From Candidatus Brennerbacteria bacterium (GTDB lineage: Bacteria; Patescibacteriota; Minisyncoccia; UBA6257; GWB1-50-10), in contig JACPEK010000004.1 of the NCBI GenBank assembly GCA_016183535.1, positions 8,592 through 72,591 of the forward strand: a stretch of 64,000 bases of DNA, read 5' to 3'. Position 1 is the first letter of the stretch, and the number at the start of each line of letters is the position of its first letter. Positions 1-21,556 of this stretch are shown here, piece after piece. Position numbers and translations under genes: made by a program. The notes beneath the pieces were generated by a model. That model did no database searches and had not been told where the DNA came from. It saw only the letters and a list, made by a program, of their open reading frames with translations.

Positions 1-267
1 CGACACGATGCGCACCTTTTTGAAGAGCGCCGAAAGATCATGTAATGCAAAACCTTGCGGAGGAGTAGGCGTGGGAACGATAGGAGCTTCCGCGCGGGGC
101 GTTTCTGCTCGCCGATTGAGGGCTACGGGAGGCGATGACGTAGCGAACGGACTAAAAATGCGCGGAATGGAGATGAGCTCAATAAAACTTGACTGGGCGA
201 TAAGATAGTATACCCCGTAGATTACAAGGCCGACGAGCATGATAACCAAAAGCGCTTTCCAATTCAT
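1..267 (-). CDS. Partial CDS (N-terminus only, runs off window start): membrane-anchored protein of unknown function, MNWKALLVIMLVGLVIYGVYYLIAQSSF...
   Basis: Minus-strand ATG at about 265-267 overlaps the leuS stop as an ATGA stop/start. The open frame continues to position 1 and has an N-terminal hydrophobic helix. It is absent from the ORF track because it has no stop inside the window. Confidence 0.4.
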   Translation of the reverse strand, partial: MNWKALLVIMLVGLVIYGVYYLIAQSSFIELISIPRIFSPFATSSPPVALNRRAETPRAEAPIVPTPTPPQGFALHDLSALFKKVRIVS

Positions 268-2837
268 TTTGTGACGAAGTTTATGAGACGATCTTCCACA
301 TAAACCACCTTCTTCACCCCCCCGACGCCAAGCGCACTTATTACTTTGGCATCGGCGCGAACAAGCGCCTCCGCTTGCTCTTTCACTATACCCCGTGGCG
401 TCATTACCGTCGCGCGATGTTTGCCGTCCACCTGCACTACAAGCGGGAAAGTATCCTCCGCGATAAGCGATTCTTCATACGACGGCCACGGCGTACGATG
501 GATGGAATCCTCGTGCCCAAGCTCATGCCACAGTTCTTCCGCGAGATGCGGCGCGAACGGGGCGAGAAGCTTGATGAATGTTTCGAAGATACCTTTCGGA
601 GAAAAAACTCCCCACGCTCCCAAATTGTCCTTTTCTCTTTCGAGATAACCAAGTATAACCATCAATGCGCTGATTGCGGTGTTGTAGTGGAGATTTTCAA
701 TATCATTCGTAACGGCTCTGATGGTTTTGTGTAATGTTTTTTCCAAGTTTCTCTTTTCAAGAGTGGGTGTTTCTATCCCGGCGCGCATTCCACCAACCGA
801 CACTAAACGATCCGTGATCCCCGAGGGGGGGATTTTCAAACCGAGCTCACGTATCCTCCTCACAAACCGCACGATGCCCTGGATGCTCGCATCGCGGAAG
901 TCGCCACCCTGCTCGAAAGGCGCCAAAAACATGAGATACATCCGGAGCACGTCCGCGCCGTATTTTTTTATATACTCGTCGGGATTCACCACATTCCCCT
1001 TCGACTTCGACATTTTGGCGCCTTCTTTGATAAGGAGGCCATGAGCGCGGAATTTCGGGAACGGTTCCCCTCCAGGAGCGTCCGAAGAGCCGAACGCAAG
1101 GAGTTTTAAATCGTGGAGCGCGAGCGCCACAAACCGCACATAAAGAAGATGGAGCACCGCGTGCTCGGCACCGCCGGTGTAGAGGTGCACCGGAAACCAT
1201 TGTTTCGTGACAACGGGGTCCCAAGGGGCTTGTCCCAAGCGAGTAGCGCGAGTCGAGGGGTAACGGATGTAATACCACGCGGAGTCGAGAAAAGTGTCCG
1301 ACACATCGGTCTCGCGCCGCGCATCACCGCCACATCCCGGGCATTTTGTTTTATAGAATTCTGGCGCGGACCCGAGCGGTGATTCGTCTCCGCCCTCCGG
1401 ACGGAATTTCTCGATATAAGGGAGTTTGACGGGAAGTTCTTCCTCCGGCACCGCATACCAACCGGACATTTCGCTTTGTTCGCCTTTTCCCGCCGCCGCA
1501 CACGCTTCACAGAAAATCATGGGGATCGGCGCGCCCCAGTAGCGCTGGCGCGAGATGAGCCAGTCTCGAAGACGGAAACGCGTTTCGCGTTTCCCGCCGA
1601 CCACTTCCGCGATTTTCCATTTCGCCTCCTCGGATTTCATGCCGTCGAAGACGCCCGAACCCACAAGATGCCCCTCGCCCTCATACGCCTCGTCGAGCAC
1701 AGGGCATGTCGGTGCGGGATAGTGGGGACACACCACCATCACCACGGGAAGATTGAACTTCTGCGCAAATTCGTAATCACGCTTGTCGTGTGCCGGCACG
1801 GCCATGATCGCGCCCGTACCATATCCCGCGAGTACGTAGTCGGAAATCCACACCGGAATTTTTTCTTTATTCGCCGGATTCGCCGCGAAAATTTCGGTTG
1901 CAACTCCGGTTTTCTCTTTTTGTTTCTCCTCGCCCTCCGCGCGGCGCGCGAGCGCTTCATCCACGTACTCCGCGACCGTCTGCGAAGGTTGCCATCCCTT
2001 TTCCATCCATTCTTTTGCGAGCTCTGGCGACACCACTATAAACGTCGCGCCGAAGAGCGTGTCGGGGCGCGTCGTGAACACTTCAATCTCATCTGAAAAT
2101 TGAAAATCGGAAATAGGAAATTTTATGCTCGCTCCTTCCGATTTTCCGATCCAGTTCTTTTGCGCAATCTTCACGCGCTCGGACCAATCAATTTTCTCTA
2201 AGTTATCCAAGAGCCGCTCGGCGTACTTCGTGATGCGAAAAAACCACTGCTCGAGCTCTTTCACCTCTACCGCGGTGCCGCACCGCTCGCATTTCCCGCC
2301 GATCACCTGCTCGTCGGCCAAGACCGTCTTGCACGACGGGCACCAGTTCACCGCTTGTTTTTTTCGGTATGCGAGGCCGTGTTTCCACATCTGGACAAAA
2401 ATCCACTGCGTCCAGCGATAGTAGGCCGGGTCGTAGGTTTCGAGGCGTTCCTCCCGCGCGAATCCGTTCCCGATCGCGGAGAGCTGATCGTAGAACCGCG
2501 CCTCTGATATCTTCGCCTGCTCCATAGGGTGCGCGCCGATCTTCAGCGCATAGTTCTCCGAATGGATGCCGAAACCATCGAGGCCGATCGGTTCGAACAC
2601 GTCGTAACCTTCCATCCGTTTTTTTCTTCCGTAAATATCGGCGCCGGTGAACGCATACATATTCCCCACGTGGAGCCCTTCCGCCGAAGGGTACGGAAAC
2701 ATCATGAGGTTATAGAACGGCCCCTTACCTTTCGGATTATCCAAATCCGGTTCGTAGGTGCGGTTTTCTTGCCACACCTTCTGCCATTTCTTTTCTATTT
2801 CACCGAAATCGTATCGTTCGGAAGACATATCAATCAC
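264..2837 (-). CDS. leuS: Leucine--tRNA ligase (LeuRS)
   Basis: 857-aa ORF with class-I HIGH-region (HVGN) and KMSKS motifs and a CP1 editing-like region. The true start may be the internal MSSERYDF a few codons downstream. Confidence 0.95.
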   Translation of the reverse strand: MIDMSSERYDFGEIEKKWQKVWQENRTYEPDLDNPKGKGPFYNLMMFPYPSAEGLHVGNMYAFTGADIYGRKKRMEGYDVFEPIGLDGFGIHSENYALKIGAHPMEQAKISEARFYDQLSAIGNGFAREERLETYDPAYYRWTQWIFVQMWKHGLAYRKKQAVNWCPSCKTVLADEQVIGGKCERCGTAVEVKELEQWFFRITKYAERLLDNLEKIDWSERVKIAQKNWIGKSEGASIKFPISDFQFSDEIEVFTTRPDTLFGATFIVVSPELAKEWMEKGWQPSQTVAEYVDEALARRAEGEEKQKEKTGVATEIFAANPANKEKIPVWISDYVLAGYGTGAIMAVPAHDKRDYEFAQKFNLPVVMVVCPHYPAPTCPVLDEAYEGEGHLVGSGVFDGMKSEEAKWKIAEVVGGKRETRFRLRDWLISRQRYWGAPIPMIFCEACAAAGKGEQSEMSGWYAVPEEELPVKLPYIEKFRPEGGDESPLGSAPEFYKTKCPGCGGDARRETDVSDTFLDSAWYYIRYPSTRATRLGQAPWDPVVTKQWFPVHLYTGGAEHAVLHLLYVRFVALALHDLKLLAFGSSDAPGGEPFPKFRAHGLLIKEGAKMSKSKGNVVNPDEYIKKYGADVLRMYLMFLAPFEQGGDFRDASIQGIVRFVRRIRELGLKIPPSGITDRLVSVGGMRAGIETPTLEKRNLEKTLHKTIRAVTNDIENLHYNTAISALMVILGYLEREKDNLGAWGVFSPKGIFETFIKLLAPFAPHLAEELWHELGHEDSIHRTPWPSYEESLIAEDTFPLVVQVDGKHRATVMTPRGIVKEQAEALVRADAKVISALGVGGVKKVVYVEDRLINFVTK

Positions 2838-2843
2838 ATTCTA

Positions 2844-2913
2844 CCCCGCACCTTTTGTAGATGTAAACGCGAAGCGTTTCAATACGAATGCACGCTCCAC
2901 AAAAGGTGCGGGG
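2844..2913 (-). promoter_or_regulatory. Nested inverted repeat in the tatD-leuS intergenic spacer (15-bp outer arms ccccgcaccttttgt / acaaaaggtgcgggg enclosing an aaacgcttcgcgttt hairpin)
   Basis: Read directly from the sequence. It sits immediately upstream of the leuS start codon. No T-box consensus was seen. Confidence 0.35.
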
Positions 2914-2929
2914 TTCTAACCGACATTCT

Positions 2930-3751
2930 TCATATATGGAAAACGCGGGTAATATTTTCGCGGATCTGCGCGGCTATTTTCCCCACCGGCACATCTTTAA
3001 GCTCGGCGAGTTTTTTCACCACCTCGACCACATACGCCGGTTCGTTTCGCTTTCCGCGATAGGGTGCGGGCGTCACGTACGGCGCGTCGGTTTCGGAGAG
3101 AATGCGATTTAAGGGAATTGACCGGATTATTGCGTCGTAATCAGGCGTGAACGTGATGACGCCGCCGAAGGTGAACGAGAATCCGAGCGCGAGGAGATCG
3201 CCCGCTTCTTCCGCGGTACCGGTGAAAAAATGGATGATGCCGGGATTTTCCCTAGGAAGTAGCGAGTAGTTGGTAGTGAGTAGTTTCAAAAGATCGGGGA
3301 AGGCGGAGCGGCAGTGGATCATGAGCGGCTTCCTGATTTCTTTCGCGAACTTCACGTGTTCCATGAAAAGCGCGCGCTGTTTTTCTTTTGTTGCTTCGTC
3401 GCCGACCCTGAAATAATCGAGCCCACATTCTCCTACCGCCACCACGCTCGATTCTTCCGCAAGTTTCCCATAAAACTCCGCGTCAAAAATTTCCTCTCCT
3501 CCCGCGGCCTGCTCGTCGGGATCCGCGTATTCCGACGCGGAAGCGTGGCTCGGATGAATGCCGACAGCCGCATAGCAAAGATCAGGATAGGCGCGCGCGA
3601 GCACCGCCGCCGCCTCGGAAGTTTTCCGCGCCGTCCCCACGTTCACCATCCGTACTCCCGCCTCGCGGGCGCGCGCGAGCACCGCCTCGCGATCCTCATC
3701 GTAGGCGGAAAACTGCGCGTGAGTGTGAGCATCAAAATATTCGAAATTCAT
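2930..3751 (-). CDS. tatD: TatD-family metal-dependent DNase/hydrolase
   Basis: 273 aa with N-terminal FDAHTH and typical TatD TIM-barrel histidines. Confidence 0.85.
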   Translation of the reverse strand: MNFEYFDAHTHAQFSAYDEDREAVLARAREAGVRMVNVGTARKTSEAAAVLARAYPDLCYAAVGIHPSHASASEYADPDEQAAGGEEIFDAEFYGKLAEESSVVAVGECGLDYFRVGDEATKEKQRALFMEHVKFAKEIRKPLMIHCRSAFPDLLKLLTTNYSLLPRENPGIIHFFTGTAEEAGDLLALGFSFTFGGVITFTPDYDAIIRSIPLNRILSETDAPYVTPAPYRGKRNEPAYVVEVVKKLAELKDVPVGKIAAQIRENITRVFHI

Positions 3752-3808
3752 TCTCCCAATTAAACAAAAAAACGCTCCCGAATGGAAGTGTTCATGAAAA
3801 ACGCATGG

Positions 3809-4540
3809 TTAAAGATTCGCAACCACCCATCCGCGAATTTCCTTGACCGAGGCGAGGATATTTTTGATCTCCACGCCAAGGTTTTGAAATTCTTCGAAGG
3901 GAGTTCCTCCGGAGAGGACCGCGATGGATTCCATATCCGCCGCGCGCGCGTACCCCACATCGAATATGGTGTCGCCTACATATACCACCTGCTCGATGCG
4001 GTAACGATGAGACAGGTACGCCTCGATCGCGAGGAATGACGCGGGATTTTCTTTTTCATACCGATTTCTCGGTAATCTTCCTTCCGCGTCGCCTTCGCGC
4101 CCGACCACGAGCGAGAATGCGTCGCGCGCTTTCAACTGCCGGAGCAGTTGATCGACATTTTCCGTATGGCGAGAGGTGTAGAGCGCCACCTCGCCGCAGG
4201 TGTCGCGGCACCATTCAACGATTTCCCGCGCGCCTTTGATAAAGGAGGCGGGATCAATTCCGTCCCAGATCTCCCACTGCTTGTTGATGGCGAGCGCCAT
4301 TTCGTGGGGAATTCCGAGCGATTCCGTAAGCATCGGAATGGCGGGCTTCCCCCACTGCGAGAAAAGCTTCCGCTTCGCCTGTTCGGTGAGAAAGACACCG
4401 TTCACGGCGAGGAGAATGGTAACGCGGTATTTCCCTATGGAGGGAGAATCGAGAAGGGTACCGTCAAGGTCGAAAATAAATCCAGTTTTCACACATACCT
4501 CTCTTTTGTTGGTAAAAAAACTGCCCTTACCGTAGGGCAA
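3809..4540 (-). CDS. HAD-superfamily hydrolase (phosphatase-like)
   Basis: FIFDLDGTLLDS motif I and a VGDTxxD motif IV. Confidence 0.7.
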   Translation of the reverse strand: MPYGKGSFFTNKREVCVKTGFIFDLDGTLLDSPSIGKYRVTILLAVNGVFLTEQAKRKLFSQWGKPAIPMLTESLGIPHEMALAINKQWEIWDGIDPASFIKGAREIVEWCRDTCGEVALYTSRHTENVDQLLRQLKARDAFSLVVGREGDAEGRLPRNRYEKENPASFLAIEAYLSHRYRIEQVVYVGDTIFDVGYARAADMESIAVLSGGTPFEEFQNLGVEIKNILASVKEIRGWVVANL

Positions 4541-4564
4541 TTCGGCGCACCAGTCAAACTTTTC

Positions 4565-5343
4565 TCACTCGATCCGCGGGAAGAGCGGCGGGAATTCCGC
4601 GGTGGTATCTCCGGCTATGGCCAATATCTTTCCGCTCGTCTCCGGCAGAAACGGCGCGAGAAGCTCACCGATCTCCCGCACATCTCGAAGGAGGTTTGCC
4701 ACGTCGCGTTTTGCCCTCTCGGGATCCGTCTTGATTGTTTTGAACGGCTCCGTTTCCTGCACATATCGATCGCTCGCCTGAATGCGTTCCCAAACCGCGT
4801 CCATCGCCTTCTGGAACTCGAACCGTTCCATGGTTTCTCGATACAGTTCCAGAACCGCTCCGTTCGCGCGCGCGCGCTCAAGTGTTACGCCGTACGCCCG
4901 CGCCATTTTCCCCACCCTGCTCACGAGATTACCAAGTCCGTTCGCAAGGTTTGCGTTATAGGACTCCTCGAACCGCTCCCGGGTGAAATCGCCATCTTCG
5001 AAAGTCGGCACCTCCCGCAAGAGCCAGTAGCGAAGCGCGTCCGCGCCGTACCGCGCCACAATTTCGAACGGATCCACCACGTTCCCCGCGCTCTTCGACA
5101 TTTTTTCGCCTCCGGAAACCGTGATGAAACCGTGAATCACAATCTGTCGCGACGGAGGGAGTCCCGCCGACATAAGCATTGCCTGCCACATCGCCGATTG
5201 CTGGCGGAGATTGTCCTTGCCGGCGAACTGGATCGCATTCGGCTCTTCCTTCGTTCCCCAGAATTTTTCGAAGTCGGATGGCTTGTCTGTCGAATTTTCG
5301 GCGGAGGCCGGCCATCCGAGCGTGGATACATAATTTACGAGCG
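4565..5343 (-). CDS. metG: Methionine--tRNA ligase, C-terminal portion (KMSKS plus anticodon-binding domain), frame-shifted relative to the N-terminal portion
   Basis: The track ORF 4565..5191 begins MWQAMLMSAGLP...GEKMSKSAGNVVDP. The same frame stays open upstream (…VDALVNYVSTLGWP…FWGTKEEP…AGKDNLRQQS) back to the junction near 5345, but in a different frame from the N-terminal ORF. Confidence 0.8.
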
Positions 5344-5345
5344 CA

Positions 5346-6023
5346 TCAACCCTCGTCTTCCGGCACCGATACTCCCCACGGCATTTTTTCCTTAAGGCGC
5401 GAGATGCTGAAATCGGAAAGTCCCCCCTCCACGAAACGCCGTATTTCGTTCAATCGAAATTCGGGGAGCACGAAATCCTGATACTTCGCATAAAGCTCAA
5501 GGAGCCTTTCTTGATATCTCGAGAACTTAAAAAAATAGTTTTCTTCTTCCCGCTCTTCGATCGCGAGCGCGGGATGGAGGGGGCAATGCCCGTTTTCGAG
5601 CTCGGAATCGGTTTTTTCGAGCTCGCAACCACTACAATACTTCACGCGATACTTCGCTTTATAGATATCGCCGGCCGCATCGCACCGTCGCCAGAATTCT
5701 TGCGCGGCCGCCGCATGGGCGGGATCGGTGGTGCGGATAAAACGGCCACTTTGGAGATCAATGTTGAGGGCTGTAAGAAGTTTTTTAAAATGCGCGGCGT
5801 TTTCATCCACGTATGTCTGCGGATCCTTTCCCTCCGCAACCGCGTTCCGATAAATTTTCACGCCGTGCTCATCGGTGCCGGTGTTGAGAAACACCTCACA
5901 CTCCTCGTGACGAAGGTAGCGCGCCGCGGCATCCGCCTGCACCAGCTCGAGCGCGAATCCGATGTGCGGTGCGGCGTTCACGTAAGGGAGCGTGGTCGTG
6001 AGATATGATTTTTTTCTCATCAC
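5346..6023 (-). CDS. metG: Methionine--tRNA ligase, N-terminal portion (HIGH motif, Zn knuckle), ends at an in-frame TGA
   Basis: PYVNAAPHIGF HIGH region and a CSGCELEKTD…CPLH zinc-binding knuckle. It stops after …PWGVSVPEDEG, where MetRS normally continues with HVxYVWxDAL. Confidence 0.85.
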   Translation of the reverse strand: MMRKKSYLTTTLPYVNAAPHIGFALELVQADAAARYLRHEECEVFLNTGTDEHGVKIYRNAVAEGKDPQTYVDENAAHFKKLLTALNIDLQSGRFIRTTDPAHAAAAQEFWRRCDAAGDIYKAKYRVKYCSGCELEKTDSELENGHCPLHPALAIEEREEENYFFKFSRYQERLLELYAKYQDFVLPEFRLNEIRRFVEGGLSDFSISRLKEKMPWGVSVPEDEG

Positions 6024-7042
6024 GCAAGACCTTGCCGCTCACGCTTCTGTTCCGCGAGATAATTAAAAACTTCCTGCGCCGCAACCGCGATCGGCACCGA
6101 GAGGAGTACGCCGGTGAAACCCGCGATTTCGCCGCCCGCGAGGAGCGCCATCACTACCATTACGGGATGCACCTTCACCGCACGACCCATAACAACGGGC
6201 GTGAGGATATGATTCTCGAGTTGTTGAACGAGGAAGAAAAAGAGCAGTGTGTAGAGCCCCAACGTCCATGAATCTCCGACGGCAACGAGAAATCCAACCG
6301 CACCGGTGATGATGGGGCCGATAATGGGTACCACTTCAAAAACCGCGGCGATGAGGCCCAGCGCAAGATAGTACCGGACGCCCAAGAGCCACAAACCCAG
6401 CGCCACAATGCCGCCTACCGCGAGCGAGAGGCCCAGCTGGGCGGAAAACCAGTTGCGGATCTTTTCCTTGAAAACCGAGAAGACCGAGAAGAACGCGCGT
6501 TCATACGCATCGGGAAGCACCACCCGAAAAAACCGTTCCGTTCCCTTCTCCTCCACGGTGAGATAGAACGATATGACGATGACCGCCGCGACGAAAAGGA
6601 GCCGCTCGAAGAGCGAACCGATGGCGCCCGCGACCGAGAAATCCGATGAGGAGAAAAACGCGAGCGCCTGTTCGAAATTCTGCGTTACCTGCTCAATCAC
6701 CCCCCGCGGAATCCCGATGTTGAAAAGGCCGCGGAACGTCTCATCAAAGTGCGCGATAAAACTCCCCAGCTCCGTGATGACAATGGGAAGCATAAGATAG
6801 ACCACCGCGCCGAGGGCGAGGGCGGCGGCGAAAAACACAAGCGAGGTGCCGAGGAGCCGAGGAATTCTGCGTCGCTCAAGAAAACTCACGAAAGGATCGA
6901 GCCCGAGCGCCACCACGATCGCAACGACGAACACCCCCATCACCGAACGGGCGAGGATGAGTACGGCGATCATTCCGCCGAACACCGCGAGGCGGAAGAG
7001 TGAAAGCCACGAGATCTCAAAACGAGAGGATGGCGCATCCAT
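6020..7042 (-). CDS. AI-2E family transporter (PerM/YhhT-like) membrane protein
   Basis: 340-aa polytopic membrane protein with a typical AI-2E-like arrangement. It overlaps the metG start by 4 nt. Confidence 0.7.
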   Translation of the reverse strand: MDAPSSRFEISWLSLFRLAVFGGMIAVLILARSVMGVFVVAIVVALGLDPFVSFLERRRIPRLLGTSLVFFAAALALGAVVYLMLPIVITELGSFIAHFDETFRGLFNIGIPRGVIEQVTQNFEQALAFFSSSDFSVAGAIGSLFERLLFVAAVIVISFYLTVEEKGTERFFRVVLPDAYERAFFSVFSVFKEKIRNWFSAQLGLSLAVGGIVALGLWLLGVRYYLALGLIAAVFEVVPIIGPIITGAVGFLVAVGDSWTLGLYTLLFFFLVQQLENHILTPVVMGRAVKVHPVMVVMALLAGGEIAGFTGVLLSVPIAVAAQEVFNYLAEQKRERQGLA

Positions 7043-8355
7043 CAGACTTTCACTATATCAAGAAAAGAGGTTTCTTTATAGGGACCGATCAGGGCAAGGT
7101 TCAAGTGGTTATTGGTAAAAAGTCCCTGCGCGACGGATTGTATATCCTCCGCAGTCACCATCCGGAGCCTTTCTACATACGCTTCGGGTGTGATGAGGGG
7201 GAGCCCTAAAATCTCCTGCCCTCCGTAGAAGTAGCCCTGCGCGTCCGAGGTTTCAAGCGAGAGTACAAACTGCCCTGCGAGGTGCCGCTTCGCGCGGTCG
7301 AGGTCCGCTACGCTCACAGGCTCCGTCACAAAACGGCGGAACTCTTCGAGTGCGACGGCAAGCACGTCACGGAGCTTTTTATGCGTTACCCCCGCGGACA
7401 TTTCGATGAGCCCATGATCGGAAAAGAAATCAGTCGAGGCTCGCACGTAGTACGCCGCGCCAAGCTCTTCCCGCACCCGCTGGAAAAGGCGCGAACCCAT
7501 TCCGCCCCCAAGAATGTCGGCGAGAAGCTCGAGCGCGTAGCGCCGCTCGTCCCGCACCGGAAATGCGCGGAAGCCAAGCACAACGTGCGTTTGATCGGAC
7601 TCTTTGAACTTGACGAGCTCGCGAGGAACTTCCTGCGCCTCCTCCACCATCTGCTTATCGTGCTTTTCCCCACCCGCGAGCCCTCCAAAACGAGCTCGAA
7701 TGCCTTCCTCGATTTTTTGTGCGTCGAACCCTCCCGCCACAACCACCACCGTCGCCTGCGGCAGATAGTGCCGCCCGCGATACGCGAGAAAGTCGTCGCG
7801 GGTAATTTTCTGGATGACCTCTTTCGGCCCCAAGATGCTCCACCCCGCGGGCTGATCGCCGTAGACAAGCTCCATGAAGTATTCGCCAACTCGCCGCTCG
7901 GGACGATCTTCGTACATATTGATCTCCTCAATGATGACCCCTTTCTCCCGCTCGATTTCCTCGGATGCGAAAGTGGGGTTAAGGTAGAGATCGGCCACCA
8001 CGTCGAGCGCGCGCTCCGCATCCTCGTTCTTCACCTTCGCATAGTAGCTCGTATATTCCTGCGAAGTGAACGCGTTGTAGTCCGCGCCCAAGCCGTCGAG
8101 TTCGGAGGCGATATCAATAGGACGCGGACGGTTCGTCGTCCCCTTGAAACACATATGCTCAAGAAAATGCGAGATGCCGTTTTGGTCTTTCGTCTCGTAC
8201 TTCGAGCCCGCCTCGACTAACACCGCCACGGTGGTCGCGAGACTCCCCGCCTCGGGCACGAGGATGATGCGAAGCCCGTTCGGGAAAACTATTCGATGAA
8301 ATTGCTCCATAGCAAGAGGATGGTAGCAGAGGAGAACAGTGCCCGCAACCTGCAC
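7042..8355 (-). CDS. M16-family (insulinase/pitrilysin-like) zinc peptidase
   Basis: Inverted zinc motif HFLEHMCFKGT (HxxEH). The probable true start is at MEQFHRIVFPNGL, about 8310. Confidence 0.85.
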   Translation of the reverse strand: MQVAGTVLLCYHPLAMEQFHRIVFPNGLRIILVPEAGSLATTVAVLVEAGSKYETKDQNGISHFLEHMCFKGTTNRPRPIDIASELDGLGADYNAFTSQEYTSYYAKVKNEDAERALDVVADLYLNPTFASEEIEREKGVIIEEINMYEDRPERRVGEYFMELVYGDQPAGWSILGPKEVIQKITRDDFLAYRGRHYLPQATVVVVAGGFDAQKIEEGIRARFGGLAGGEKHDKQMVEEAQEVPRELVKFKESDQTHVVLGFRAFPVRDERRYALELLADILGGGMGSRLFQRVREELGAAYYVRASTDFFSDHGLIEMSAGVTHKKLRDVLAVALEEFRRFVTEPVSVADLDRAKRHLAGQFVLSLETSDAQGYFYGGQEILGLPLITPEAYVERLRMVTAEDIQSVAQGLFTNNHLNLALIGPYKETSFLDIVKV

Positions 8356-8437
8356 CGCACAACACTTGACAGAAAACCTATTTTTATTCTATTTTTGATC
8401 CAGCCATAATTCTTTCATAATCAAATAGGAGTAAAAA

Positions 8438-8809
8438 ATGAAGACGCAATTATTCTTTCTCTTCATCGCATGGTTCGCGCTCGGCGGGCTTTTTCTTTCG
8501 GTGGTTCTCTATCCTGAAAATGAAAAGGATTCGAGAAAAAACGAACCTATAGAAAAACTCCGCAACAGAATCATCGCGGAGTTCGTTATCATCCCGTCGC
8601 TTTTCGCCGTTTCTGCGATATTTGTGAAAATCGGGGCCGCCTCCGATTCGCATTTATTGGTGGGGATAATGACACTTATTGTCACTTTCGACGTAGCGTC
8701 GAGTTACGTATTCTTTCTTGGAATAAAACATTATTTATTCCGAAAAAGATTCGAGAGTATAAATAGTCTCGCGAGATCTCTCACCCTCGAGGAAGAGGAG
8801 GTAAATTAA
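8438..8809 (+). CDS. Small membrane protein, unknown function
   Basis: 123 aa with three or four hydrophobic helices. Preceded by a cataat -10-like box and an AGGAG RBS. Confidence 0.5.
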   Translation: MKTQLFFLFIAWFALGGLFLSVVLYPENEKDSRKNEPIEKLRNRIIAEFVIIPSLFAVSAIFVKIGAASDSHLLVGIMTLIVTFDVASSYVFFLGIKHYLFRKRFESINSLARSLTLEEEEVN

Positions 8810-8846
8810 AAAATCCCCGTGTCCGGAATACCGGCCGGGGATTTTG
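8807..8846. terminator. Bidirectional rho-independent terminator between convergent genes
   Basis: aaaaatccccgtgtccggaataccggccggggatttt: a GC stem flanked by an A-run and a T-run. Confidence 0.7.
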
Positions 8847-8858
8847 CATACTCGCCCC

Positions 8859-10154
8859 CTATCCTAGTTTTCTTGCAAAATATTCCTTCAGGTTCGCTAT
8901 GGGGATTCGTTCTTGTTTTGTGGTGTCGCGGTCGCGGACGGTAACATCATTTTTTTCGAGCGATTCGAAGTCCACCGTGATGCACCACGGCGTACCGATC
9001 TCGTCCTGACTCAAGTAGCGCTTGCCGATATTTCCGCGGTCGTCCCACGCAAAAGAACCAAGGTGTGAGTGGTCGGCTTTTAGAGCTTCGTAAATGTGAC
9101 GGGCGAGTTTCACGAGATCGGGCTTGTTCGCGAGGAGCGGGAAGACCGCGGCCGTAACCGGCGCGATGTGCGGATGAAACTTCATTACCACGCGTTCCTT
9201 TTCCTCCGTATACGCCTCGCACATCAACGCGAGCGCGATCCGCTCTACGCCGGCCGAGGGCTCTATCACATACGGAAGATAACGCTCTTTTGCTTCTTCG
9301 TCAAAATAAGTGAGATCAATCCCAGACGCCTTCGCGTGCGCCGAAAGATCGAAATTGCCGCGGTTCGCCACACCCTCTATTTCCTGCCATCCGAACGGAA
9401 ATTCGTACTCGATATCCGTGGTCGCTTTTGAGTAGTGAGCCCGCTCCTCCTTGGCTTGCTCGCGCAGACGCACCTTCTTCAAGCCGATGGATTCATGCCA
9501 CGCGAAGCGCCGCTTAACCCACTCATCGAAAATTTTTTCATCTTCGTCCGGCTTCACGAAATACTCGAGCTCCATCTGTTCGAACTCGCGCGTGCGGAAC
9601 ACAAAATCGCGCGGATTAATCTCGTTCCGAAACGCCTTACCGATCTGTGCAACGCCAAACGGGAGCTTCAGCCGCGTAGAATTCAACACGTTCTTAAAAT
9701 TCACGAAGATGCCCCCCGCCGTCTCGGGGCGAAGATACGCGACAGACTCCGACCCTTCGGCGGCGCCCACGCGCGTTTCGAACATTAAATTGAACTGCCG
9801 CCCCACGCCAAAATCACCACCACAGTCGGGGCATTCATTTTTTACTTGATCGGCCCGGAATCGATGATGACATTTTTTACATTCCACCATCGCATCCGAG
9901 AAACCGCCTACGTGCCCCGATGCTTCCCATGCTTTCGGATTCATAATGAGAGCCGCGTCAATATCCACGACATCATCGCGACGTTCCACCGTGTCGCGAA
10001 GCCATGCGTGCTTGATATTCCGCTTCAGTTTTGTTCCCAAAGGGCCCCAATCGTAAAAACCGGCAAATCCGCCGTAAATCTCGCTCCCCGGGTAAACAAA
10101 TCCGCGCCGCTTCGCGAGCGCCACCACTTTTTCCATTAAATCTTTTTCTTTCAT
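8859..10154 (-). CDS. glyQS: Glycine--tRNA ligase (single-chain alpha2 type)
   Basis: 431-aa class-II aaRS with a Cys-rich knuckle (CKKCHHRF…CPDCGG) and an anticodon-binding C-terminus. Confidence 0.9.
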   Translation of the reverse strand: MKEKDLMEKVVALAKRRGFVYPGSEIYGGFAGFYDWGPLGTKLKRNIKHAWLRDTVERRDDVVDIDAALIMNPKAWEASGHVGGFSDAMVECKKCHHRFRADQVKNECPDCGGDFGVGRQFNLMFETRVGAAEGSESVAYLRPETAGGIFVNFKNVLNSTRLKLPFGVAQIGKAFRNEINPRDFVFRTREFEQMELEYFVKPDEDEKIFDEWVKRRFAWHESIGLKKVRLREQAKEERAHYSKATTDIEYEFPFGWQEIEGVANRGNFDLSAHAKASGIDLTYFDEEAKERYLPYVIEPSAGVERIALALMCEAYTEEKERVVMKFHPHIAPVTAAVFPLLANKPDLVKLARHIYEALKADHSHLGSFAWDDRGNIGKRYLSQDEIGTPWCITVDFESLEKNDVTVRDRDTTKQERIPIANLKEYFARKLG

Positions 10155-10196
10155 GCCTTTCGCTCATTCCCAGAGCCTAATGCCTAACGCCTAAAT

Positions 10197-12050
10197 TCAC
10201 GGTACCACGCGCCCTTGACCCTCCGCCACCGTGGGATCATCCTCGAGCGCGGTCGTAATCGCCGCGGCGCGACTCGAGAGCGCCGTTCCCGTCCAAACAT
10301 CGGTCGCGGAGAATACTGTGGGGCCGAGGATTGCCTGAAACTTTCCTTCCTGCGACGGCGTCGGCGCCGCGCGCACCTGAAACACCGCCTCAAGCGGTGT
10401 GTTCACAATGCCCTTTCCCGCCGCTATCTTGCCGATTTCCCACACCGCCTCGCGTGTTTCTTCTTCAAAACGCGGCGGCTCTCCGACGCTCGCGGAAGCG
10501 ATGCCGGTCCACGCAACCTCCGGCGGCAACGCGGCACGCACCTTCCCTCCTTCGACATCCGTGGAAAAATTCTTAACGATCCAATGAACGGTATATTCAG
10601 TGGCGGCGCCGACCTTGGGAGGAAACGCTCCCGCGTTCACGACGCCCGCCGCCGCGTCGCGGTAGAAACCCCGCGCGCCCACAAGCGCGAATCCGGCGAG
10701 CTTTGTTTCGAGGATTGCGGTCGCCGCGGTCTTGTCAGCCGAGAGATATGAGGGCACGCTCGGCGATTCAGCATTCACCGTAAGGCGCACCGCGTAGTTT
10801 TTGTCCGAGAGGCGGCGGATGGGGAAAGACGCTTTCAAGGGAATCGCAAGTGCCACTTCGCCCGCTACGTCCGGATCCACAATCCGGAGTGAGGGAACGT
10901 TCAACGCATCCCACGAAATAGTGCGGGCCGCGACGTTCACGCGCCCCTGCGTCCCCACGGAATTCAGATCGTACATTTCCCCGGCGAGCGTCGCGCGTAT
11001 CGTGAGATCCGCAAGCGTAACGCCCGTCTGGTTCCGATAGCGGATGAGATAGGTAACGAGATCACCGGCCCGCGACACATAATCTCCGCTCCCATTCGCG
11101 GTGATTTCGAGAAAAAGCGGGGAGGGCGCAAGCGGCGCGTCCGCCTCCGTTTCGGCAATTGTGTAATCTTTGCCGAGAAAATTTGCCGAGGCGCTCACAC
11201 CAAACGACGCTGAAGTTTCTCCCGCCGCCGCCACCGCACCTTTTACAATGATCGTTCCTTTCGAGCCGGCATTCAGCGCCCCAAACTTCCAATAGTTGTT
11301 GAGTGAATCGGGAGGAAGACTCGCTGATTGAAAAACGAACGGGGCGGGATAGTGCGCTTCGAGCGCGACCCCTGTGAAATCGAACGGGGAAATATTCTCA
11401 TATTCGATCGTAAATTCAAACGATGAATTACCCACCACCCGCTCGGGCATCCGCACGATCGTCCGTATGCCCGATGTTTTCACGGTGAATGTCGCCCGCT
11501 CGTCCGCTTTGAAGCGGCTTCGCCCGCCCGAAACGTAAAGGAGTGAAACCTCGATCTCTTTCTCCGTCCCGGGGTTTCCCACCGCCATGAGGCGAAAAGC
11601 GCGTTTTGCGATTGACCGTCCGCCGATATCTCCTATTGTTTCTTCAACCATTCTTTCTCCGCCCGAGAGGGCGCCGAGCGCCACCACATTTTCAGGAAGA
11701 TCGAGTGATACTGTCGCTTCCCGCGCGATCCCGTCAATCGTATTTTCCGCGTTCACCACCACATCGAAAGGCACTCCGCTCATCACCTCTTCCGGCGCCT
11801 CGAGCGTCAGGATGATTCCGCGCGACGCTTCGCGGGAAAAGAAAAAATAGAGCCCGCCGCCCGCGATCGCGACGACCGCGAGCACTGCGCCCGCGGCAAA
11901 CGCTATTGAGCGCGCCGCGATCCGCACTTTTTCGGAAAACGAAAGAGGCGGCGGCGTCTCCACGACCGACGCTGGATGGGTTGCGTCCGCGCGTTCCTTC
12001 GTGGTGCCCGGAACAATATCGAGCGGTTTCCGTTCAAAATCTTCCACCAT
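10197..12050 (-). CDS. Large membrane-anchored surface protein with repeated beta-rich (DUF11/CARDB-like) modules
   Basis: 617 aa. An N-terminal TM helix (IAFAAGAVLAVVAIAGGGLYFFF) is followed by long Thr/Val/Gly-rich beta-like segments. Confidence 0.5.
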   Translation of the reverse strand: MVEDFERKPLDIVPGTTKERADATHPASVVETPPPLSFSEKVRIAARSIAFAAGAVLAVVAIAGGGLYFFFSREASRGIILTLEAPEEVMSGVPFDVVVNAENTIDGIAREATVSLDLPENVVALGALSGGERMVEETIGDIGGRSIAKRAFRLMAVGNPGTEKEIEVSLLYVSGGRSRFKADERATFTVKTSGIRTIVRMPERVVGNSSFEFTIEYENISPFDFTGVALEAHYPAPFVFQSASLPPDSLNNYWKFGALNAGSKGTIIVKGAVAAAGETSASFGVSASANFLGKDYTIAETEADAPLAPSPLFLEITANGSGDYVSRAGDLVTYLIRYRNQTGVTLADLTIRATLAGEMYDLNSVGTQGRVNVAARTISWDALNVPSLRIVDPDVAGEVALAIPLKASFPIRRLSDKNYAVRLTVNAESPSVPSYLSADKTAATAILETKLAGFALVGARGFYRDAAAGVVNAGAFPPKVGAATEYTVHWIVKNFSTDVEGGKVRAALPPEVAWTGIASASVGEPPRFEEETREAVWEIGKIAAGKGIVNTPLEAVFQVRAAPTPSQEGKFQAILGPTVFSATDVWTGTALSSRAAAITTALEDDPTVAEGQGRVVP

Positions 12051-12055
12051 CGTTT

Positions 12056-12586
12056 TTATACATTTAATAGTACCTCATCACCTCTCCCCGCGACACACGC
12101 GGAACAAACGAACACACCGTCCGCGGGAATAAAAAACCGAATCGCCGGCGCGCGGCATCGGACGCACCGCGCCTCGGCGGGATCGTACCCAAGCATGGGC
12201 AACACGTCCCGCGCCGTAAGCTGTCCCGATTCGAGCGCGCGCCGGACGCCATAGAAGAGACGGGCGTCGGGCACTTCCTTCGGTGCGAGCGCGCGGATCG
12301 CGAAAAGCGCGCCGAGGGCGGCTCCGAACGTAGATGGGGTGCGCCGGACGCGAGCGAACCGGCTCTTCCCGACCGCGTCGGCGAGCGTGTATCGAATCTT
12401 TTTCACGAGCCGCACCGTGACGAGGCTCGGCGGATCGCAGTGAGGAGAAAATTTCGAGACAATGGCGCGGCCGGCAACCATGCGCGCTTCGAGACGGCCG
12501 AGGGCGGGGGTGAGGAGATCGGCCACGCGGTCACTCCCCCGCGGCCGCACTCCGAGCACGATGGCGTCCGTCACAAATTCTTTCAT
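12056..12586 (-). CDS. recO: DNA repair protein RecO
   Basis: OB-fold N-terminus and a C-terminal CxxC…CxxC zinc motif (CVRCRAP…CSAC). The start is probably the internal MKEFVTDAIVLG. Confidence 0.75.
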   Translation of the reverse strand: MKEFVTDAIVLGVRPRGSDRVADLLTPALGRLEARMVAGRAIVSKFSPHCDPPSLVTVRLVKKIRYTLADAVGKSRFARVRRTPSTFGAALGALFAIRALAPKEVPDARLFYGVRRALESGQLTARDVLPMLGYDPAEARCVRCRAPAIRFFIPADGVFVCSACVAGRGDEVLLNV

Positions 12587-12590
12587 ATTC

Positions 12591-14096
12591 CTACCGTTCC
12601 ACTTTCGGCGTACGCCAGAAACCAAGTCGGAATTTACCGCCCAACATCATCCTTGTCTGCGCGTCGAGCGCGGGCACGCCGCTCCACACAAGAAGCGTGA
12701 ACGGCAGGAGAAACCATTGCGCCACATAGAGCAACGCGCGCCACGGATTTTTCCGTTCCCAAACCAGACGCGGAGAGAGGAGCATCACCGAGAGAAATCC
12801 GAACGTAACGATACCGATGAGGCTCAAATTAATCAGCACTCCCGTGACGCTCGGAAGATTGTAGGAGAGCACAGTGGCGTTGAAATCTCGCCCGCCAAGC
12901 ATGAGGGGAAACCAGCCGAAAAAGAAAATAATAAAGGAGCTTGTCGCCCAAGTGTAGAACCCCTCAAGGAGGTTGAACCCCCAAAACCATTTCACGCGGC
13001 GCGGAATGGTTTTGTTTCGGATGAATTCTCCGAAAAGGTAAGGGATGTTCTCGATACCCCACGCCCATCGCCGTTGCTGTTTGTAGAGATTCCGGAGCGC
13101 CTGCCAAAAATTTTCTCCCTCCACCGCGTCCATGGTAACGGGGTAGTAGAGCGGAACCGCGCGCCATCCTCCGTTATAGCGCGAGAGGCACTGAAAAAAT
13201 ATGCGGGAATCCTCCGACACGATGCCGGTATGCCAGTATCCCACCTCCTGAAGCGCGACGAGGGAAATGGAGTGCGAGGAAAACGTCACGAGCTGTTCGT
13301 GCCGCGACTGTTGCATGAAATTCCAGAACGTGGTGGTAAATCCGATGAGCCTCGCAAAAACCGGGGCGCGGTGCAGATTATTAGTGAAAAGCGGGATGGG
13401 TTGGTAGCTCACCCGCCACGGATGCGGTTCGGTGAGAAAACGGCAGGTGAGGACACCGAAGTAGTCCGGACCGGGGCGAGTATCAATATCAAACACCGAC
13501 ACCATGACACGCTCGTGAGGAATGTTGCGCTCTTCAATGAATTTTTCGATCGCTTCTTTCGCCGCCCACGTCTCGTTTGATCCTTTTCCCGGAAGTTCGC
13601 CGGGGATGTTCGCCGGGTGCCGCGCCACATGAAGGCCGGCGAAGAGCCCGCCGAACTCGCGGATCATCGCGCGGGCGGTTTCGGCATCTCCTTCGCCGCC
13701 GCGCTCCTCCGTCGCGAGCACGACAATCATGCGATCCTTTTCATATCGCGCGCGGGCAAGATTCGCCATCGTTTCCCGCACAAGCGCCACCGGTTCCTGA
13801 AACATGGGGAGTACCACGAGGTGGTAGATCTCGCGCGAAGAAATCCATCCCTGTTTTTCGCGGTCAAGCGCCGCGCGCGCGGCCTCCCAGTTCTCGGCGC
13901 GCGTCCGTTTCATCCTCACAAAAGAATAGCGCAGATGAAAAAAGAGATACACGGTCTTTAAAAACCAATAGAGGTCAAAAAGAACAATAAACACCGCGAC
14001 CGCGGCGGGCGCGCGCCACGAAAAAAAGAGGAGGGCGGCGAGCGTACTCCACGAGAGCGCCCCCGGAAGTATTTCAAAAAAGCGGTTTCTGCTCAT
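12591..14096 (-). CDS. Family-2 glycosyltransferase, integral membrane (cellulose/chitin-synthase-like processive GT2)
   Basis: 501 aa with D, DxD and QxxRW-like (QQRRWAWG) signatures and multiple TM helices. Confidence 0.75.
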   Translation of the reverse strand: MSRNRFFEILPGALSWSTLAALLFFSWRAPAAVAVFIVLFDLYWFLKTVYLFFHLRYSFVRMKRTRAENWEAARAALDREKQGWISSREIYHLVVLPMFQEPVALVRETMANLARARYEKDRMIVVLATEERGGEGDAETARAMIREFGGLFAGLHVARHPANIPGELPGKGSNETWAAKEAIEKFIEERNIPHERVMVSVFDIDTRPGPDYFGVLTCRFLTEPHPWRVSYQPIPLFTNNLHRAPVFARLIGFTTTFWNFMQQSRHEQLVTFSSHSISLVALQEVGYWHTGIVSEDSRIFFQCLSRYNGGWRAVPLYYPVTMDAVEGENFWQALRNLYKQQRRWAWGIENIPYLFGEFIRNKTIPRRVKWFWGFNLLEGFYTWATSSFIIFFFGWFPLMLGGRDFNATVLSYNLPSVTGVLINLSLIGIVTFGFLSVMLLSPRLVWERKNPWRALLYVAQWFLLPFTLLVWSGVPALDAQTRMMLGGKFRLGFWRTPKVER

Positions 14097-14150
14097 AGCG
14101 TTCCCGCGCGGCGCGCAGAAAGCGCGTCGCGCGCGTGCGTTATCTTCCTC

Positions 14151-14555
14151 TTAATAGATGAAAACGCCGAGGGCGTCGTCGAGACCAAGGGCGCCGCCTC
14201 CCGTCGTCGCGAGGAGCAGGGAAACCGAGAGGATCAGAAGATCAAATTCGTACCCGCCCACAAGTCCCCGCGCGCGGTTCACCTTCAACACGATAAAAGC
14301 GAACTGGAGCGCCACCAAAACCGCCACCGCCTGCGTGAGAAATCCGACGATGAGCGCTATGCCACCGAAGAATTCAAGAAGGGCGGCAGGAAACGCGAAA
14401 AGCACCCCCGGCCGAAGACCAATCGAAGCCATCCATACGGAGGTCCGCCCTAGATCCTTAAGTTTCGGAAACCCGTGCGCGATGAGAATGACACCGAGCG
14501 CCACACGCAAGAAGAGAATGGCCCAGTCGTAGAATGCAAAAAATGGCTGAATCAT
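14151..14555 (-). CDS. DoxX-family membrane protein
   Basis: The C-terminal 134 aa of the track ORF (MIQPFFAFYDWAILFLRVALGVILIAHGFPKL…) is the DoxX-like part. The upstream extension of the track ORF overlaps the tsaD start on the opposite strand and is probably not translated. Confidence 0.7.
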   Translation of the reverse strand: MIQPFFAFYDWAILFLRVALGVILIAHGFPKLKDLGRTSVWMASIGLRPGVLFAFPAALLEFFGGIALIVGFLTQAVAVLVALQFAFIVLKVNRARGLVGGYEFDLLILSVSLLLATTGGGALGLDDALGVFIY

Positions 14556-14661
14556 GGGAGTAAAAATTCCCGACCTTTGATGATAAGGACGAGTATAGGC
14601 CTCTGCGGACGAAAAGAAAAGAGCGCTGGGAAGCGAGGGCGCGCTCGGATATAATGCCGCC

Positions 14662-15750
14662 ATGCGCATCCTTGCGATCGAAACGAGTTGCGACGAGACG
14701 GGAATCGCGCTCATTGAGGCGACCGGCGGCGTGCGCGCGCCAAGAATCCGCATCCTCAAAAATCTCGTCTCGTCGCAGATCGCGGTGCATGCCCCTTTCG
14801 GCGGCGTGGTGCCAAACCTCGCGAAACGCGAACACCTTAAAAATCTTCCCGTGTTGTATGGGAAAATTTCTGCAAACTCGAAATCCGAAATGCTGGATCC
14901 CGGACAAACTCGCGATCTCAAATCAAAAATTCAAAAAATAGATCTGGTCGCCGTGACGGTCGGACCCGGCCTCGAACCGGCCCTCTGGACCGGCATCACG
15001 TTCGCCAAAGAGCTTTGGAAAAAGCTCAAAACTCAAAATCCAAACATCAAATTAGTAGGCACGAATCACCTCGAAGGCCACCTTTATAGTTTTCTTCTCG
15101 CTAAAAACTATCAACTAAAAACTAAAAACTTATTTCCCGCCATTGCGCTCATTGTATCGGGCGGCCACACCATTCTTCTCACGATGGACTCGCCCGTGAG
15201 GTGGAAAAAAATCGGGGAGACGCGGGACGATGCGGTGGGCGAAGCGTTCGACAAAGTGGCGCGGCTTCTCAACCTTCCCTACCCGGGCGGCCCCGAGATT
15301 GAGAAGCTCGCAAATCGCGGAAACCCCGAAGCGATCGCTTTCCCGCGCCCGATGCTCGATCAAAAGAATTACGATTTCAGCTTCTCGGGACTTAAAACCT
15401 CGGTGCTTTATTACGCGCGAGACCACAAACCAACAACCAACGACCATAATCTAAAAGCCGATATCGCCGCTTCCTTCCAACAAGCCGCCATAGATGTTCT
15501 CATTTCAAAAACCAAACGCGCCACAAAGGAATTCGGCGCGCGATCCATCCTTCTCTCGGGCGGCGTCGCCGCGAATCGCGCCCTCCGAAAAAGGTTATTA
15601 GTCGTAAGTCGCAAGCTATCAGTTAATTTCATGGCCCCACCCATGAAATTCAACACCGACAATGCCGTTATGATCGGCGTTGCGGGATACATGAGCTTCC
15701 TCCGTAAAAAGGCGCGACGCTTTGCCGCGCAGGGAAATCTGGATCTATAA
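14662..15750 (+). CDS. tsaD: tRNA N6-adenosine threonylcarbamoyltransferase TsaD
   Basis: Kae1/TsaD motifs (MRILAIETSCDETG, VSGGHT, CTDNA). It contains two unusual A-rich low-complexity in-frame insertions. Confidence 0.95.
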   Translation: MRILAIETSCDETGIALIEATGGVRAPRIRILKNLVSSQIAVHAPFGGVVPNLAKREHLKNLPVLYGKISANSKSEMLDPGQTRDLKSKIQKIDLVAVTVGPGLEPALWTGITFAKELWKKLKTQNPNIKLVGTNHLEGHLYSFLLAKNYQLKTKNLFPAIALIVSGGHTILLTMDSPVRWKKIGETRDDAVGEAFDKVARLLNLPYPGGPEIEKLANRGNPEAIAFPRPMLDQKNYDFSFSGLKTSVLYYARDHKPTTNDHNLKADIAASFQQAAIDVLISKTKRATKEFGARSILLSGGVAANRALRKRLLVVSRKLSVNFMAPPMKFNTDNAVMIGVAGYMSFLRKKARRFAAQGNLDL

Positions 15751-15756
15751 AATAAA

Positions 15757-15790
15757 AGCGCGGACACAGTGTCCGCGCAAAATTTCTTTC
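15757..15790 (+). terminator. Rho-independent terminator after tsaD
   Basis: gcgcggacac-agt-gtccgcgc followed by aaaatttcttt. Confidence 0.7.
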
Positions 15791-15947
15791 GTTTCTCGGA
15801 GGTATGTGTCAAGAGAGGCGAGCGGTGCGCCACGTTCTCAATCGCGACTGTCGGAAGTTGACCTATAAACATCCGCACGATATAGTATTCCCGTCGACCG
15901 ATCCGCTCCGCAAAAGCGGATTTGTTCTTAAAAGACCGTCCGTAAAC

Positions 15948-17183
15948 ATGATAGACACCAAGGCGCTCGCCGCCGCCGCGGCAAAAGTCGCTTCAGAGAA
16001 GGGAATCCCGCCCGAACGGGTCATCGAAGCGATCGAAACCGCCATTGCGGCCGCCTACAAAAAGGAATACCGAAAACGAACGGAGATTATCCGCGCCAAG
16101 CTCGACGCCAAAACGGGCGCCTTAAACTTCTCACAGATCAAAACAGTGGTGGACCCCGCCAAGGTCCGCATAATTACAGAAAACGAGGAAGAGGCCGAAT
16201 TGCTTCAACCTCCGAAACACCGACCGGAGGCGGAAGGAGAGGAAGAGGTATTACCCCGCTACCATCCGGATCGGCATATTTTCCTCGAGGAAGCGCGCGT
16301 TATAAAATCCGATGTCGCGATCGGCGACGAAGTGGAATTTCCACTCGAAACACACGAGTCGTTCGGGCGCATCGCGGCACAAACCGCGAAACAGGTAATT
16401 CTCCAGGGTCTCCGCGATGCCGAGCGGGCTTCGGTACGGGAAGAGTTTACGGACAAGGAGGGAACGATTGTGAGCGGAGTCATCCAGCGCTTTGAGCGCG
16501 GCAACGTCTATGCGGATCTCGGACGCGCGGTCGGTGTCATGTTCCACACCGAAACCATTCCGGGCGAACACTACCAGATCGGCGAACGGCTCCGCTTCTA
16601 CGTGCTCGCGGTGCAGGACGACGCGCGCCGTCCCGGCATTGTTCTCTCGCGTTCGCACCCCGAATTCGTGAAAAAGTTGTTTGCACTCGAGGTGCCGGAA
16701 ATCGCCGAGGGAGTGGTGGAGATCAAAGGGATCGCGCGCGAGGCGGGAAGTCGCACGAAGGTCGCGGTCGCTTCAAAAGAGGAAGGGGTGGATCCGGTCG
16801 GATCCGCGGTGGGTCAGCGCGGCACGCGAGTTATGGCGGTCACGAACGAGCTCGGAAACGAGAAAATCGACATCATCGAGTGGTCGGACGATCCCGCGAC
16901 CTTCATCGGCAACACGCTCTCCCCCGCGAAGGCAAAACTCGTGGAAACTTTCGATCGGCGCGAGGCGCGAGTCCTGGTTGCCGAGGATCAGCTCTCGCTC
17001 GCGATCGGGAAGGGTGGGCAAAACGTGCGCCTCGCCGCAAAACTCACCGGATGGAAGATAGATGTCCGCTCGCAATCGAATCCAGAAACGGTGCAGGAGG
17101 GAGGGGTGGCGGCGAGTGCGAAGAGAGAACCCGAACCGCTCTCCGACGCTCCGTCCGAAGAAGAAAAAAACGTCGAATCATAA
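15948..17183 (+). CDS. nusA: Transcription termination/antitermination factor NusA
   Basis: S1 and two KH domains. The likely start is MIDTKAL at 15948; the track ORF begins earlier at 15804. Confidence 0.9.
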   Translation: MIDTKALAAAAAKVASEKGIPPERVIEAIETAIAAAYKKEYRKRTEIIRAKLDAKTGALNFSQIKTVVDPAKVRIITENEEEAELLQPPKHRPEAEGEEEVLPRYHPDRHIFLEEARVIKSDVAIGDEVEFPLETHESFGRIAAQTAKQVILQGLRDAERASVREEFTDKEGTIVSGVIQRFERGNVYADLGRAVGVMFHTETIPGEHYQIGERLRFYVLAVQDDARRPGIVLSRSHPEFVKKLFALEVPEIAEGVVEIKGIAREAGSRTKVAVASKEEGVDPVGSAVGQRGTRVMAVTNELGNEKIDIIEWSDDPATFIGNTLSPAKAKLVETFDRREARVLVAEDQLSLAIGKGGQNVRLAAKLTGWKIDVRSQSNPETVQEGGVAASAKREPEPLSDAPSEEEKNVES

Positions 17184-17204
17184 ATAAAAAAACAATAGAC
17201 CGTT

Positions 17205-19613: not shown

Positions 19614-19648
19614 CGTCCCGCGCACCGCGCGAGATGGTCTCTTCCTTA

Positions 19649-19682
19649 ATCCCTCCGCGCGGCGCGCGGAGGGATTTGTTTG
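19649..19682 (+). terminator. Rho-independent terminator after hppA
   Basis: atccctccgcgc-ggc-gcgcggagggat followed by ttgttt. Confidence 0.7.
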
Positions 19683-19706
19683 AGGCAAAGCAAAAAAGCG
19701 CGCATA

Positions 19707-21540: not shown

Positions 21541-21556
21541 TTTCCGGCCGCTCCGC

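Follow-up and report, generated by a model that had tools for sequence, protein, structure and literature searches.

The question raised by this locus is whether the methionyl-tRNA synthetase (MetRS) gene, metG, is really broken inside its catalytic domain in the organism, or only in the assembled sequence. The window, by which we mean the whole 64-kb stretch of Candidatus Brennerbacteria DNA that was analysed, presents metG on the minus strand as two reading frames, the second of which lacks a start of its own near the break. An initial annotation had left two alternatives open, a split or non-functional gene and a local assembly error. The analyses described below indicate that the interruption almost certainly belongs to a known class of local errors in metagenome-assembled genomes, and is not a real biological feature.

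The metG locus and its product

The N-terminal ORF (5346..6023, minus strand) is 225 amino acids long, or 224 when counted from the ATG at 6020, and terminates with ...PWGVSVPEDEG (RLKEKMPWGVSVPEDEG) immediately before a premature TGA. The 3′ part of the gene continues in the +1 frame as RVDALVNYVSTLGWP...GGEKMSKS (HGFITVSGGEKMSKSAGN), which can also be written VDALVNYVSTLGWP...KMSKS, and runs to a stop at 4567..4565. Comparison with the intact copy described in the next section shows that the deficit is exactly 20 nt (six codons and 2 nt), located between window positions 5350 and 5349. The coordinates, the +1 relation of the two frames and the deficit of 18–20 nt, or about six codons, had been correctly read from the window in the initial annotation. 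The first ATG, GTG or TTG in the frame of the 3′ part is the codon for M284 of the intact protein. The features are collected in Table 1.

Table 1. Features of metG and of its surroundings, in window coordinates
Feature	Position	Strand	Description
metG 5′ part	5350..6020	-	Codons 1–223 and first two bases of codon 224 (Gly); HIGF form of HIGH signature; CxxC...CxxH zinc knuckle
metG junction	5349..5350	-	20 nt ACACGTCATGTACGTATGGT (gene orientation) absent; present in contigs L001 and L002
Premature TGA	5346..5348	-	Arises in the N-terminal frame from the 20-nt loss (GAG GGT TGA)
metG 3′ part	4565..5349	-	Last two bases of codon 231, codons 232–491 and stop; DALVNY, KMSKS, anticodon-binding domain
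First possible start codon in frame of metG 3′ part	5189..5191	-	ATG, M284; 53 codons downstream of junction
LeuRS	264..2837	-	
Class II tRNA-synt_2b/HGTP_anticodon enzyme	8859..10154	-	
ValRS-type gene	22703..24955	-	At 22.7 kb
Two TrbC/T4SS-pilin genes	43153..43521 and 43554..43904		
TrbL_3	57100..58896		
PrgI-like	60368..60868		
TraC-like	60887..61528		

Both fragments are recognised as MetRS. The Pfam domain tRNA-synt_1g (PF09334) matches the N fragment with an E value of 5e-44, the best stretch corresponding to profile positions 2–140, and matches the C fragment with an E value of 1e-35 over positions 249–390 of 391. The C fragment also matches Anticodon_3, the MetRS anticodon-binding domain (PF19303, E 2e-10). 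When the two fragments are concatenated, they align end to end with solved MetRS structures, with E values of 9e-94 for A. aeolicus (2csx) and 1e-87 for Brucella (4dlp). Alignment of the fragments to MetRS structures, which had been suggested as a check, gives a clean six-residue gap against the Brucella protein, in which VPGDEKHVMYVWVDALTNY is placed opposite VPEDEG------VDALVNY. The second check suggested was a search for another metG; tblastn with the intact MetRS as query finds none within the 64-kb window, the other matches being LeuRS and the ValRS-type gene.

Full-length similarity to the structures, together with the presence of both the catalytic and the anticodon-binding domain, identifies the protein as a type 1 class Ia MetRS. 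The similarity extends over the full length of the type-1 bacterial enzymes (MetRS1) of Aquifex aeolicus (2csx), Brucella melitensis (4dlp), Thermus thermophilus (1a8h) and Staphylococcus aureus (7wpi), with which the locus shares the tRNA-synt_1g and Anticodon_3 architecture. The intact allele also shares with them KMSKS, a single CxxC...CxxH knuckle, and the methionine-pocket motif YVW-x-x-AL-x-x-Y. The locus differs from MetRS1 in that the window copy is frameshifted and lacks residues 225–231, and in that the signature reads HIGF; the intact protein, at 491 aa, has no C-terminal dimerisation or tRNA-binding appendix. The nearest named relative and GTDB representative is a Candidatus Brennerbacteria MAG, with 69% MetRS identity. 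The underlying gene is an ordinary type-1 metG of CPR/Patescibacteria.

Conservation was assessed in the 120 best homologues, all of them CPR/Patescibacteria MetRS with 59–70% identity. Both class I signatures are present in the locus, HIGH as the HIGF variant and KMSKS at residues 313–317, the latter being invariant or nearly so in the 120 relatives. HIGF is encoded at window 5955..5966 (minus strand, residues 19–22), and its H19 and G21 are invariant in the same set. At position 22, 96 of the 120 closest CPR sequences have HxGF and the remaining 24 HxGH, so HIGF is no error but a clade-wide form of the signature.

The residues missing from the window are also strongly conserved. The columns for residues 225–231 read (H/Q)VMYVWF and are gap-free in all 120 relatives, and V229, W230 and F231 are invariant. 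The Tyr-Val-Trp triad within this block is strictly conserved in MetRS and corresponds to Y235-V236-W237 of S. aureus MetRS1, where the L-Met pocket is lined by Trp237, Ala240, Leu241 and Tyr244, and where Trp237 flips by about 6 Å upon methionine binding (PMC9071491). The W-x-x-A-L-x-x-Y spacing of the S. aureus enzyme is reproduced here as W230/A233/L234/Y237. In the E. coli enzyme, the residues of the methionyl-adenylate pocket include Trp253, Ala256, Pro257 and Tyr260 (PMC10535265). An AlphaFold2 model of the intact MetRS (mean pLDDT 90.1, pTM 0.89) has a strand at residues 222–227 followed by a helix at residues 229–239, and on this model the 20-nt loss shortens a core strand at its end and deprives the pocket helix of its first turn. 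The locus is a MetRS gene, but the version of it in the window, as it reads, cannot encode an active MetRS. The 120 related proteins are all single-piece, and the best 80 related genome loci likewise contain only single-piece metG, with no split or frameshifted gene among them.

An intact allele in sister assemblies

In the window, metG adjoins a gene for a 340-aa transporter of the AI-2E family (6020..7042, minus strand). The same transporter, identical in sequence, is found on two contigs from Logan assemblies, namely L001, a 17.3 kb contig from run SRR12113420, and L002, a 7.8 kb contig from run SRR12113422. On L001, the gene that follows the transporter encodes a single 491-aa MetRS. Alignment of L001 with window positions 1..15261 gives 15,281 columns with 0 mismatches and one 20-nt gap. 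Read in the direction of the gene, the window has GACGAGGG|TTGATGCG, while both L001 and L002 have GACGAGGG-ACACGTCATGTACGTATGGT-TTGATGCG. The added 20 nt bring the frame back into register and code for G224-H-V-M-Y-V-W-F231, of which H225-VMYVW-F231 is the conserved block described above; Y228, V229 and W230 are thus encoded by L001 and L002 and missing from the window copy. L001 is the only contig that runs unbroken through the junction.

On either side of the junction, the gene is the same in all of these sequences. The 5′ part shows no difference from L001 and L002, and the 3′ part none from L001 and L004, a second contig of SRR12113422. Gene decay into a pseudogene was considered and rejected, given the intact allele in two sister samples and the absence of any other difference from it in the remaining 1,456 nt of metG. 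The contigs L004, L005, L006, L087, L088 and L089, drawn from both runs, are all 100% identical to the window without indels. Altogether, eight independent contigs span 43,247 window bases at 100% identity (a figure that excludes window 15262..28175, which lies outside all the fetched independent contigs), and 25,868 of these bases are covered by two independent contigs. The 20-nt block in metG is the sole difference, and the window is otherwise base-perfect across the bases compared.

The absence of mismatches over 43 kb indicates that the window and the runs SRR12113420 and SRR12113422 represent the same population. Since this population has an intact gene at the same locus, a split or non-functional metG in the organism, which was the first of the two alternatives in the initial annotation, is unsupported, and it is the second, a local assembly error, that is favoured. 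About 20 additional nucleotides at the junction, seen in reads and restoring a single ORF, had been named in advance as the observation that would count against a truly interrupted gene. Such a block is indeed found, at the level of independent assemblies rather than of mapped reads: the 20 nt in L001 and L002 give one ORF of 491 aa that includes HVMYVWF.

The broken form was also sought elsewhere. The exact 224- and 225-aa N-terminal fragments and the 208-aa C-terminal ORF have no entry in the gene-position index, and the broken form is therefore reproduced by no public gene call. A gapped DNA pattern that catches both alleles gave 0 matches in GTDB representative genomes and JGI metagenome contigs, and a pattern for the left flank only gave 0 matches in JGI metagenome contigs.

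Origin of the 20-nt loss

In SRR12113422, the metG locus is split over two contigs, L002 and L004, which overlap by only 2 nt. L002 stops at gene nt 693 (...GTATGGTTT) and L004 begins at gene nt 692 (TTGATGCG...). The first base of L004 is window 5349, that is, the base right after the junction. The four fetched contigs of this run have 8 ends in about 28.8 kb, and the chance that a given end falls at a given base is about 3e-4. The site of the lesion thus coincides with a contig end in a sister assembly, at the one place where the consensus is discordant with the independent assemblies between perfectly agreeing flanks.

The overlaps themselves are informative. By the logic of de Bruijn graphs, unresolved forks in a k = 31 graph should give overlaps of k-1 = 30 nt, and shorter overlaps point to missing spanning k-mers; the contig ends in SRR12113422 would therefore be low-coverage dropouts. 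The behaviour of contig ends in this run was calibrated with a second pair of consecutive contigs, L089 and L006, which overlap by 19 nt (window 50819..50837) and not by 30. At this second place the window is correct, as judged against the SRR12113420 contig L088.

There is no direct repeat flanking the 20-nt block and no unusual hairpin at the junction (DNA fold z = +1.3 against shuffles), so that replication slippage has no substrate here and a polymerase-skipping artefact finds no explanation either. Furthermore, as there is no repeated k-mer, there is no false de Bruijn path, and the junction must either be present in the reads or have come from a step that the graph does not constrain, for instance scaffolding, gap closing or manual editing. 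The window holds no Ns, and the junction carries no visible join marker.

We consider it probable that a wrong contig join across a low-coverage spot in metG explains the loss, and that the gene of the organism is intact and in a single piece. The joining step and the clipping are inferred from the geometry of the junction, which is what would result from joining two such contigs on an over-estimated overlap. Coverage would have dropped at one spot within metG, leaving two contigs with their ends there, and a step outside the graph, for example paired-end scaffolding or gap closing, would have joined them without inserting Ns. In this join the right-hand contig would have stayed complete to its last base (window 5349), and the left-hand contig would have been trimmed by about 22 nt; with a true overlap of only 2 nt, clipping of this size would produce a net loss of 20 nt. 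If the IDBA scaffolder, when given a negative gap estimate, adds the next contig after skipping that many bases, with the overlap left unverified, an estimate of about -22, against a true value of -2, would yield exactly the lesion seen in metG.

A pipeline of this kind is documented for a closely numbered run. The accession SRR12113421 falls between those of the two runs, and this run yielded a genome from agricultural groundwater in Modesto, California, sampled for He et al. 2021 (bioRxiv 10.1101/2024.02.19.580942). In He et al. 2021, bulk (0.1 µm) and serial size-fraction filters were used, and each filter was separately assembled with MEGAHIT 1.2.9 followed by IDBA-UD scaffolding. The 100% identity to SRR12113420 and SRR12113422, together with the adjacent accession SRR12113421, suggests that the window originated in this project; SRR12113420 and SRR12113422 themselves are absent from the supplements of He et al. 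2021.

Chen et al. 2020 (Chen, Anantharaman, Shaiber, Eren, Banfield; Genome Res 30:315; PMC7111523) described local assembly errors that no read supports, and their CPR example contained about one local error per 87 kb. One error in a 64-kb window fits this rate. The lesion in metG resembles their local MAG errors in being short and confined to a single spot of an otherwise perfect scaffold, in corrupting a protein-coding gene, and in its CPR host, and the probable pipeline includes IDBA-UD scaffolding. It differs in how it was recognised: their criterion was the absence of any supporting read, whereas here the evidence is assembly discordance and the coincidence with a contig end.

The other readings of the junction were weighed against the same observations. 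The best placed of them, which we nevertheless regard as unlikely, is that the 20-nt deletion is a genuine metG allele, carried by some members of the natural population or by damaged or amplified DNA molecules, and that the assembler followed it. This reading draws on the fact that a de Bruijn assembler emits only junctions whose k-mers are in the reads, there being no repeat to provide a false path, and on the start of L004, which lies exactly at the in-fork expected at nt 692 if reads with G+TTGATG... coexisted with the intact allele. However, such an allele would lack invariant active-site residues and be frameshifted in an essential gene of which the window has only this copy, and a lineage carrying it should not attain assembly-level abundance. 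Its flanks match the intact allele without a single SNP in 43 kb, so that a deletion allele has no strain background of its own to belong to. Furthermore, L002 crosses the left breakpoint (nt 671) unbroken and ends at nt 693, which is not what a simple bubble between intact and deleted alleles at k = 31 predicts; the contig overlaps of 2 nt and 19 nt in SRR12113422 point to coverage dropouts, not forks; and there is no microhomology or hairpin to drive a deletion of 20 nt. That the deletion is a real allele dominating one size-fraction sample of the groundwater community seems to us quite improbable. If it were so, episymbiotic CPR cells would be persisting with their sole metG inactivated, for which possible routes are heterozygous multi-copy chromosomes or dependence on host or sibling cells.

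The contig ends could also be read as the trace of a mobile element (group I intron, intein or IS) that is polymorphic at YVWF|DAL, the contig breaks and the damaged junction being its by-products. Homing elements prefer highly conserved active-site motifs, and if an alternative allele had the left flank in common up to 693 and the right flank in common from 692, a k = 31 graph would be expected to end contigs at nt 693 and 692, as observed. Against this, L001 is uninterrupted at the site and no sequence of such an element was recovered. An intron- or intein-sized insertion is present in 0 of the best 80 related metG genes, which span 1.36–1.57 kb, in a sample in which interrupted genes are under-represented because one of the two patterns used to find the loci spans the site. 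The overlap of the second contig pair of SRR12113422 likewise falls short of k-1, at a place that has no such site in its vicinity, and low coverage is therefore a sufficient explanation without any element. We give this reading very little weight.

We find it scarcely credible that the interrupted gene is expressed as it stands, either as a split MetRS of two subunits or through programmed +1 frameshifting at GGT-TGA. It is true that both fragments retain perfect MetRS sequence with no other lesion, and that split aminoacyl-tRNA synthetases exist in nature, as does +1 frameshifting at a UGA codon in prfB. However, the seven residues, gap-free and nearly invariant in all 120 relatives, are absent from the DNA itself, so no translational device can restore them, and the reading is rejected on this ground. 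In the C-terminal frame, the 53 codons past the junction contain no start codon, which leaves no plausible separate C-terminal subunit, and the sister assemblies are intact, as are the best 80 related loci, 0 of which have a split or frameshifted metG. In natural split synthetases, for example the alpha/beta LeuRS of Aquifex aeolicus and the AlaRS of Nanoarchaeum equitans, no conserved residues are lost, both halves have start signals of their own, and relatives show the same split. The window copy of metG resembles them as a class I synthetase in two consecutive ORF pieces, but differs in all three respects: conserved residues are lost, the second piece has no start, and the relatives are single-piece. 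With prfB (RF2) it shares an in-frame TGA and a downstream part in the +1 frame; unlike prfB, it has no slippery site of the CUU-U type, re-pairing from GGU to GUU would not amount to a slippery shift, relatives do not share the arrangement, and seven essential residues would be missing from the product all the same.

The converse reading, in which the window is right and both Logan assemblies carry a spurious 20-nt insertion, has only the formal symmetry of an indel in its favour and is rejected outright, because the 20 nt put the gene back into one frame and supply precisely the HVMYVWF of the relatives, which a random insertion could not do, and because two samples, assembled separately, both contain them.

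With a wrong contig join as the preferred explanation, the main worth of the result is as a quality flag, in that a 64-kb stretch, base-perfect elsewhere, contains a local error of 20 nt. If the break were accepted as it stands, the genome would be scored as lacking a functional MetRS or as having a “split essential gene”, and such calls feed claims on the dependency of CPR symbionts and on gene loss. The true sequence of metG can be restored from the sister assemblies. The approach also provides a cheap test that needs no reads: a suspect region is compared with assemblies of sister samples, and the position of the lesion is compared with their contig ends.

Surroundings of metG in the window

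Four aminoacyl-tRNA synthetase genes lie within 25 kb of each other, encoding LeuRS, MetRS, a class II enzyme and a ValRS-type class I enzyme (Table 1). The last of these is only 750 aa long and lacks a C-terminal extension. A second broken synthetase was considered at 22026..24955 and rejected, since in the 750-aa ORF both the catalytic and the anticodon domain are complete, and the ORF that follows encodes a PrsW protease. The exact product of the ValRS-type gene is not on record in the gene-position index, which may reflect a difference in start codon or contig breaks in the other assemblies. The exact product of an 802-aa ORF at 17205..19613 (plus strand) is likewise not on record.

Further along the window there is a gene set resembling type IV secretion or conjugation systems, at about 43153..43904 and 55397..62854, which also includes several large ORFs without a Pfam match. 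Between its two parts, a contig of SRR12113420 stops at 45615 and one of SRR12113422 at 45612, so that their ends fall within 3 nt of each other. On the opposite side, a contig of SRR12113420 stops at 43954, and the intervening stretch of about 1.7 kb (43955..45615) is in no fetched contig. This stretch adjoins a tyrosine recombinase gene of the phage-integrase family (45998..46918, minus strand), and may be a variable or mobile region.
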